DNA of 1,612 nucleotides from assembly GCF_003334255.1 (NCBI RefSeq), contig NZ_QOWU01000154.1. One strand, written 5' to 3'. Under the pieces are notes generated by a model that saw only the letters and a program-made list of their open reading frames with translations, was not told the origin of the DNA and made no database searches. This document shows positions 1,248 to 1,612 of this stretch, one piece after another (position 1 is the first letter of the stretch; each line of letters starts with the position of its first letter). The translations under genes and the position numbers were made by a program. This stretch comes from Escherichia coli (GTDB taxonomy: Bacteria > Pseudomonadota > Gammaproteobacteria > Enterobacterales > Enterobacteriaceae).

Positions 1248-1612
1248 TCACTCTCCTTTGATGCGAATGCCTGTTGCAATGCTGTTTATGATGCTGTCAG
1301 TGCATGGGGTAGAAAGCTGGGCATCTCCAGCAATTTTCATGACCTCAACATCTGCATATCGAATACCGAGGTGTATCAGACCGGCTATGCCTGACTTAAG
1401 CCGAGCATTTTCCATAAATAGAACTTTTGCCCGCTGTTTTTCTGCTTCAAGCTCAACGCGCAGCTTCCCTACCGTTAGCGCAATATCCTCGTTCTCCTGA
1501 TCGCGGCTTTTGATGTATTGCAGGTTTCTTTCCCGTTCATCCAGCAGTGCCAGCACGGTAGCCGGGTTAGCCTCTGCTATGAATTCAGCGTTTGCATAAG
1601 CCTGAGCATCTG
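1248..1612 (-). CDS. Ead/Ea22-like coiled-coil phage protein (tentative), 5' partial (N-terminus beyond window end)
   Basis: The ORF track starts this ORF at 1556, but that codon is GTG (plus-strand 'cac' at 1554-1556) and the frame stays open upstream to the window edge: ...DAQAYANAEFIAEANPATVLALLDERERNLQYIKSRDQENEDIALTVGKLRVELEAEKQRAKVLFMENARLKSGIAGLIHLGIRYADVEVMKIAGDAQLSTPCTDSIINSIATGIRIKGE*. Stop TGA at 1250..1248. 'NAEFIAEANPATVLALLDE' followed by a charged, heptad-like stretch (RERNLQ...LRVELEAEKQRAKVL) matches my recollection of the conserved core of Ead/Ea22-like lambdoid accessory proteins; not verified by search. Confidence 0.5.
   Translation of the reverse strand, partial: DAQAYANAEFIAEANPATVLALLDERERNLQYIKSRDQENEDIALTVGKLRVELEAEKQRAKVLFMENARLKSGIAGLIHLGIRYADVEVMKIAGDAQLSTPCTDSIINSIATGIRIKGE
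1253..1258 (-). promoter_or_regulatory. Shine-Dalgarno (AAGGAG) for the 171-aa nuclease-like gene, embedded in the last codons (K-G-E) of the upstream gene
   Basis: Minus strand reads ATCAAAGGAGAGTGATATG: AAGGAG, 6-nt spacer including the upstream TGA stop, then ATG at 1246. Confidence 0.7.

Follow-up and report, generated by a model that had tools for sequence, protein, structure and literature searches.

Background

Deletion of ea22 in bacteriophage lambda, or in the Shiga toxin (Stx) phage Phi24B, lowers lysogenisation and raises the burst or phage yield, which marks the gene as pro-lysogenic (PMC7093339). Full-length Ea22 is reported to be a tetramer, with a dimeric C-terminal domain (CTD), for both lambda and P27 (PMC10834534); the same properties, together with mosaic CTDs and early transcription from pL, are described across PMC10834534 and PMC8614690. 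The lambda CTD structure, determined by nuclear magnetic resonance (PDB 8DSX), has no known fold relatives, and three variants from Stx phages, V1 to V3, differ in their CTDs (PMC10834534). Ea22 proteins share a terminal K/R-G-E tripeptide, whose significance was stated as unknown (PMC7093339). For lambdoid phages the notion of short conserved boundary sequences is established, and such sequences are proposed sites of homologous exchange, as cited in PMC3029335.

Here we describe a member of this family from Escherichia coli, encoded on the minus strand at positions 1248 to 1612 of a stretch of 1,612 nucleotides (nt) from contig NZ_QOWU01000154.1 (assembly GCF_003334255.1). This whole stretch is referred to below as the window. 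The reading we favour, with a probability of about 0.8, is that the gene belongs to the known Ea22 family, is cut by the edge of the window, is mosaic in construction, and would work by a mechanism carried over from its relatives.

Reading frame and true start

A mechanical list of open reading frames (ORFs) places the gene at 1248-1556 on the minus strand, with GTG as its first codon (cac on the plus strand at 1554-1556). The same frame has no stop up to 1610, giving 120 codons, and 1611-1612 form a partial codon. Translation from 1610 reads DAQAYANAEFIAEANPATVLALLDERERN...SIATGIRIKGE*, ending at a TGA stop at 1248-1250. Two features are needed at this point.

1248-1612, minus strand: the 3' two-thirds of an Ead/Ea22-family gene, identified from the ORF, its extension and Pfam; codons for residues 63-182 occupy 1251-1610.
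1554-1556, minus strand: an internal GTG encoding Val81, the artefactual start of the ORF list, within the conserved ...NPATVLALLDE motif.

The window is 100% identical over its whole length in four complete E. coli chromosomes (JE86-ST05, JE86-ST02, UCPROB-001 and UCPROB-002), and phage PhiR5_1 matches it at 99.4% identity. In JE86-ST05 the frame stays open for 184 nt past the window edge, a length that encodes residues 1-61 and most of the codon for residue 62, and reaches a GTG that follows AAGGAGG-CAGCCA. Counted in window coordinates, this true start falls at 1796, and the gene shares its first 14 nt with the end of the upstream gene; the complete gene has 549 nt and encodes a protein of 182 amino acids (aa). 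The length of 549 nt recurs in three independent contexts, namely JE86-ST05, PhiR5_1 (where the gene is annotated "Ea22") and E. coli 2012EL-2448, whose copy, WP_021524342.1, is annotated as an intact "ead/Ea22-like family protein". At the true start the N-terminus reads MSKIDYQALREKAEKATKG, as taken from JE86-ST05 outside the window, and contains the segment MSxI(N/D)YQALRE. The form MS(K/E)I(D/N)YQ begins family proteins and is common to most of the 269 that were retrieved.

Profile searches lead to the same gene structure. The full protein matches Pfam model PF13935 (Ead_Ea22) with E 4.3e-36 over residues 2-151 and model positions 1-139, and the fragment inside the window matches it with E 1.3e-20. 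The fragment begins only at model position 55 and runs to 139, the last, which is direct evidence that the window lacks the N-terminal third; model positions 1-54 fall outside. Window positions 1248-1610 are thus almost certainly the codons for residues 63-182 of an Ead/Ea22-family protein of a lambdoid prophage, truncated by the window edge. The GTG at 1556 encodes an internal valine and is not a real start.

A preliminary description, made from the letters of the window alone, had reached the same view of the gene: Ead/Ea22-like, truncated at its 5' end, with a listed start that is an artefact and splits the conserved FIAEANPATVLALLDE motif. Frame extension, profile alignment and homologues all agree with it, and the translation it quoted is exactly that of the frame. 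It had named extension beyond the window as a check, and this located the real start at the equivalent of position 1796; no in-frame stop lies just beyond 1612 in the extended sequence, and the similarity to Ead/Ea22 profiles is strong. One of its grounds was invalid, namely that the listed start is a GTG, since the true start is a GTG as well. So is that of lambda ea22, and among family genes from viral contigs 73 of 82 start with GTG, typically after a purine-rich sequence of Shine-Dalgarno type such as AAAGGAGG.

Standing of the gene in databases

The exact 182-aa protein is present in NCBI on 188 contigs as "ead/Ea22-like family protein", and its cluster at 90% identity has 286 members. 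Related sequences form more than 8000 clusters at 90% identity and have 467 representatives at 50% identity. In PHROGs the full protein matches phrog_368 (E 7e-62), whose function is given as unknown. Significant structural neighbours in AFDB50 all carry the name Ead/Ea22 except three, of which two are otherwise named (70% and 57% identical) and one is uncharacterised. NCBIfam models matched none of the three proteins encoded in the window, a PDB sequence search with the full protein returned no chain at E<=1, Rfam found nothing in the window, and a scan for promoters and terminators around the Ea22 gene stayed at chance level. The gene is therefore already catalogued, as an ordinary prophage gene; the start-codon observation reduces to a window-edge artefact on a correctly named NCBI entry, in a family whose genetics have been published and whose structure is known in part.

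A protein of three exchangeable modules

Three modules, each exchanged independently of the others, make up the mosaic protein: an N-terminal alpha/beta head (residues 1-62, beyond the window edge), a conserved helical core that defines the family (residues 63-125) and a short variable C-terminal module (residues 126-182). The two that lie in the window are as follows.

1422-1610, minus strand: central conserved Ead_Ea22 module, residues 63-125; its core forms part of the predicted long helix and has 3-8 differences in 105 nt from that of lambda, 933W and PA28 ea22.
1251-1421, minus strand: variable C-terminal module, residues 126-182, containing SGIAGLIHLGI (1362-1394).

When compared by tblastn with Ea22 genes of Stx phages (933W, Min27, Phi24B, PA28 and others), residues 1-118 or 1-122 are 88-95% identical; against lambda, the alignment is limited to residues 69-122. 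Residues 123-182 gave no tblastn alignment in lambda, 933W, Min27, Phi24B, PA28 or WGPS4, and Pfam finds no DUF551 in the 182-aa protein. By these comparisons the C-terminal module belongs to no published type, of which there are four (lambda, Stx V1, V2 and V3).

The central module is common to 240 of the 269 retrieved family proteins and the C-terminal module of the window protein is present in 37 of these representatives. Among the 269 the modules are freely combined:

Head and core: 126 proteins.
Core only: 88 proteins.
Core and window-type CTD: 18 proteins.
Head, core and window-type CTD: 8 proteins.

Across 29 viral loci this CTD follows at least five unrelated N-terminal halves, the joint falling at ...(V/A)LLDE. 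Differences within the CTD comprise 12 synonymous and 7 non-synonymous changes, for a ratio of non-synonymous to synonymous change (pN/pS) of 0.19 from only 19 events, which fits a module that is coding and constrained. The module is also common in the host species: a search of 5426 complete E. coli genomes finds at least 80% of the stretch 1248-1612 in about 392.

Other C-terminal attachments occur in the family. A Pseudomonas Ead/Ea22 relative (AFDB A0A1I3NUS6) is annotated with an FtsK-gamma, or DNA-binding, domain, and PF04447 is annotated on another E. coli relative; these two represent further interchangeable C-terminal add-ons. A third relative, P0106, has a longer C-terminal domain, in which a Walker-A-like GFTGCGKS immediately precedes the stretch that aligns with the window protein. 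That alignment, to the KSGIAGLIHLGIRYADVEVMKIAGDA stretch, is weak (11 identities in 27, pairwise E 6e-4), and the short module of the window might be a trimmed derivative of a P0106-like domain.

AlphaFold was run for the monomer with 146 diverse sequences in the alignment and gave a mean predicted local distance difference test score (pLDDT) of 83.9, good for residues 1-142; a prediction from a shallow alignment of 16 sequences (pLDDT 55.6) was too poor for use. The model has a small alpha/beta head, with helices at 6-15 and 63-75 and strands at 21-25, 36-43 and 46-55, followed by a single long helix at residues 78-142 (window 1371-1565) with pLDDT of 95-98. Foldseek found no fold relative in the PDB (best E 0.31, TM below 0.25). 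SGIAGLIHLGI, described earlier as a hydrophobic C-terminal tail, proves to be residues 135-145 of 182 and lies where the predicted long helix ends, with 37 more residues before the C-terminus. A membrane segment at GIAGLIHLGI was considered and rejected, the highest 19-residue Kyte-Doolittle mean being 0.99.

A gene-boundary sequence that encodes the K/RGE terminus

The protein ends in ...TGIRIKGE*, and so carries the C-terminal K/R-G-E tripeptide of the family; GE stands at the C-terminus in 128 of the 269 family proteins. The codons responsible belong to a conserved nucleotide element.

1248-1271, minus strand: conserved 24-nt gene-boundary sequence, GGCATTCGCATCAAAGGAGAGTGA, encoding GIRIKGE and the stop.

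This element contains AAGGAG, the Shine-Dalgarno sequence of the next gene, whose ATG sits 1 nt after the stop. It is identical in lambda ea22, PA28 (V3), PhiR5_1 and the window, despite the unrelated CTDs that precede it. An exact-match scan of viral contigs found at least 125 occurrences. Among the matches listed, at least 12 upstream (CTD) clusters and at least 22 clusters of downstream genes meet at the boundary in at least 54 combinations, and a start codon falls exactly 1 nt after the boundary TGA in 120 of 124. Numerous Stx-phage genomes follow the window at about 97% identity as far as 1259 or 1271 and diverge beyond, which locates the break in homology at the boundary sequence.

The simplest reading of these alignments would be that the K/RGE "motif" is a translated gene-boundary element, which provides the ribosome-binding site of the next gene, couples its start to the stop, and offers a patch of homology for module exchange. 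We found no connection of the 3' boundary with K/RGE in the literature that could be consulted, and no annotation of this boundary (window 1248-1271) in the records examined. The 24-nt boundary of lambda (locus L004, 2148-2171) is intact and has no coupled start after it, the sequence continuing TGAGATCGG...; lambda seems to have lost the downstream partner, while the boundary that encodes K/RGE persists.

The element resembles the lambdoid "boundary sequences", labelled bsq in the Sf6 record AF547987, in being a short gene-end stretch conserved between variable flanks. In Sf6, the annotation bsq3 covers the 5' 31 nt of the Ea22-like gene 21, which match the 5' end of the window's gene; unlike the latter, gene 21 lacks the 24-nt 3' boundary. 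The 35 codons for residues 84-118, LLDERERNxQYIKxRDQENEDIALTVGKLRVELE, make up a third nearly invariant nucleotide stretch, with the 3-8 differences in 105 nt from lambda, 933W and PA28 given above.

A nucleotide-level account of K/RGE gives a concrete handle on the shuffling of accessory genes of the exo-xis and nin regions among Stx and other lambdoid prophages. We regard this explanation of the terminus, and the recognition of a common C-terminal module type not described before, as mildly new. A more far-reaching picture, which we consider possible and on balance doubtful, would make Ea22 a "plug-and-play" oligomeric scaffold. K/RGE would then be no protein motif but the translation of a 24-nt linker for recombination and coupling (Shine-Dalgarno sequence, stop, 1 nt, start), the CTD and the downstream gene would both be swappable, and residues 126-182 would count as a fifth CTD type. 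On this picture, the module at 126-182 could be an effector that targets the host or a defence system, possibly derived from a P-loop-like domain that one relative carries.

Proposed function and alternative explanations

The mechanistic part of the favoured reading, in which Ea22 acts as an early, oligomeric, CTD-presenting and pro-lysogenic protein, is drawn by analogy and falls somewhat short of an even chance. By extension from Ea22 of lambda and of Phi24B and P27 (PMC7093339, PMC10834534), the gene would be expressed early, within a polycistronic early operon. Its product would oligomerise through the long central helix, as the tetramers of the studied relatives suggest, and would present the variable C-terminal module to a partner from host or phage. 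The net effect would be to damp lytic development and to favour host survival and lysogeny. The boundary sequence, in contrast, is shown to be the place where differing C-terminal modules and downstream genes are joined. The family had been characterised earlier as having no established function; this holds for the molecular mechanism and the binding partner, and does not hold for the published pro-lysogenic phenotype, the tetramer or the lambda CTD structure.

Several observations weigh against the favoured reading. Two concern the predicted structure. Residues 143-182 are modelled with low confidence (pLDDT 46-71) as two short helices, and a crude Fourier test for heptads, by hydrophobicity periodicity of 3.5 residues, was not significant (p about 0.16). 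The coiled coil suggested in the preliminary description therefore rests on the confidently predicted helix at 78-142 and on the published biophysics of relatives. Two others concern the setting of the gene. In the four window-identical genomes, the gene and its two neighbours form a cassette located between replication gene P and antiterminator Q, in the nin region and not in the classical exo-xis region, so that timing and role of this Ea22 gene may differ from those of the exo-xis copies on pL. In these genomes the NCBI Prokaryotic Genome Annotation Pipeline (PGAP) labels Ea22 "incomplete, missing C-terminus" and calls both neighbours pseudogenes. The remaining points concern the transfer of function. 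Two-hybrid screens found no partner for Ea22 (PMC10834534), functional differences among Ea22 proteins are attributed in the literature to the C-terminal domain, and the C-terminal module of the window protein is, by sequence comparison, unrelated to those of the Ea22 proteins tested by experiment.

An explanation compatible with the favoured reading, and rather unlikely to be the chief one, is that the protein is mainly an anti-defence factor, an oligomeric scaffold whose fast-swapping CTDs would each neutralise a host defence system or recombination-sensing system. The CTDs show extreme diversity and recombine freely at one fixed boundary, the gene sits among recombination and accessory genes, and relatives bear the add-on domains DUF551, PF04447 and FtsK-gamma. 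A 2026 preprint names the lambdoid region an anti-defence hotspot and describes an inhibitor of OLD, Oad2 (EaE-like), which in some phages is fused to EaD/Ea22 proteins (bioRxiv 10.64898/2026.07.10.737580). On the other side, PADLOC, the library of which covers defence and not anti-defence proteins, gave no match, the C-terminal module shows no similarity to characterised inhibitors (EaE/Oad2 were not compared directly), and the published phenotypes relate to lysogeny, in laboratory K-12 hosts. These searches link the module at 126-182 to no defence system.

Improbable is the view that the gene is a decaying remnant or pseudogene, in which the short C-terminal module is what a deletion left of a longer C-terminal domain. 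The PGAP labels quoted above, found in JE86-ST05 and UCPROB-002, would fit such decay, as would the low AlphaFold confidence after residue 142 and the weak similarity to the longer CTD of P0106, whose GFTGCGKS the window protein lacks. The ORF is nevertheless intact, as are all three ORFs in the window, and it finishes with a canonical boundary and KGE; in other genomes PGAP itself accepts this 182-aa protein as intact (WP_021524342.1). The module is moreover identical on at least five N-terminal halves in viral loci, with the low pN/pS noted above, and its frequency among family representatives and complete E. coli genomes argues against a remnant. We take the pseudogene flags as an annotation inconsistency that stems from mosaic C-termini, and such inconsistent flags on three intact genes are worth knowing for the annotation of prophages.

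Very improbable is a genuine internal start at 1556, giving a product of 102 aa (coiled coil and C-terminal module) alongside the full-length protein or in its place. No other start codon of the ORF precedes this GTG inside the window, and GTG is a common start in the Ead/Ea22 family. Upstream of it, in GCTAACCCGGCTACC, no Shine-Dalgarno sequence is found; the codon is a valine within a motif conserved across the family, NPATVLALLDE, which continues upstream in all homologues; the PF13935 alignment passes straight through; and all database homologues reach upstream to MS(K/E)I(D/N)YQ. Least credible of all is a membrane-active or haemolysin-type protein, suggested by the local hydrophobicity of the G/I-rich stretch GIAGLIHLGI and by the old label "Enterohemolysin 2" still carried by one AFDB relative, given that the Kyte-Doolittle maximum of 0.99 stays below the usual threshold of about 1.6, that the stretch is 11 residues long between K134 and R146 and is predicted to lie within a soluble long helix, and that PMC7093339 dismisses the link as twilight-zone similarity.

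Neighbouring genes and genomic context

Two further genes of the cassette occupy the remainder of the window.

731-1246, minus strand: translationally coupled downstream gene of 171 aa (MALTHHELCQ...), its ATG 1 nt after the Ea22 stop; present as a coding sequence (CDS) in PhiR5_1.
1-734, minus strand: third cassette gene, at least 244 aa, with an ATGA overlap at 731-734; it is cut by the window's left edge.

The 171-aa protein matches phrog_9263 (E 1e-120) and also phrog_631, both of unknown function, and has a weak match (E 0.005) to a PHROG labelled "DNA repair protein"; Pfam, NCBIfam and PADLOC give no match to it. It contains a pattern like that of PD-(D/E)xK nucleases, D51...E64-A-K66. 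PGAP calls the gene "frameshifted" in JE86-ST05, yet its ORF is uninterrupted. The third gene has repeated SPVTP linkers and the beginning of a DUF551 domain at its visible end. In PhiR5_1 it corresponds to a CDS of 252 aa labelled "Ea22"; PGAP recognises DUF551 and splits the gene into two partial pseudogenes. Antisense to the Ea22 gene, an 88-aa ORF with a GTG start at 1234-1500 on the plus strand is unsupported and was taken as a shadow ORF.

The cassette spans 5001-6796 of the JE86-ST05 locus (L003), in the nin region, versus 2098-3918 of the PhiR5_1 locus (L001), within the exo-xis region. Both in PhiR5_1 and in E. coli 2012EL-2448 the Ea22 gene has the exo-xis position on the pL side, in the order exo ... 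orf61, TraR-like, Ea22 ... xis, int.

Comparison with known Ea22 and EaD proteins

EaD of Salmonella phage P22, the founding member of the Ead_Ea22 family in Pfam, shares the core with the window protein at 77.5% identity over residues 83-122. This 40-residue core alone aligns; the N- and C-terminal parts are unrelated.

Ea22 of lambda (NP_040612.1), like the window protein, has 182 aa, a GTG start, a PF13935 match and an N-terminal MSxIxxQALRE; the central core is common to both, with 7 differences in 105 nt, and the 24-nt 3' boundary (GIRIKGE) is identical. Lambda Ea22 lacks the beta-rich head insert of about 45 residues (residues 19-62, approximately, of the window protein), and its boundary, unlike that of the window gene, is not followed by a coupled start. 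Its mixed alpha-beta, dimeric CTD (residues 102-182) has no counterpart in the window protein, given the tblastn match over 69-122 alone; lambda Ea22 as query finds PDB 8DSX at 1e-51, in contrast to the absence of PDB matches reported above.

Stx-phage Ea22 proteins, variants V1, V2 and V3 (933W L0069, Phi24B, P27/PA28; PMC10834534), differ from the window protein in being longer (257 aa for 933W L0069 and 315 aa for PA28, versus 182 aa) and in their CTDs, V2 being DUF551; none of these matches the module at 126-182, the matches ending at residue 118-122. Their exo-xis position, following the TraR-like orf73, is also that of the gene in PhiR5_1; in the window-identical genomes the gene lies in the nin region. 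They share with the window protein residues 1-118 or 1-122, including the head that lambda Ea22 lacks, and the (K/R)GE terminus.

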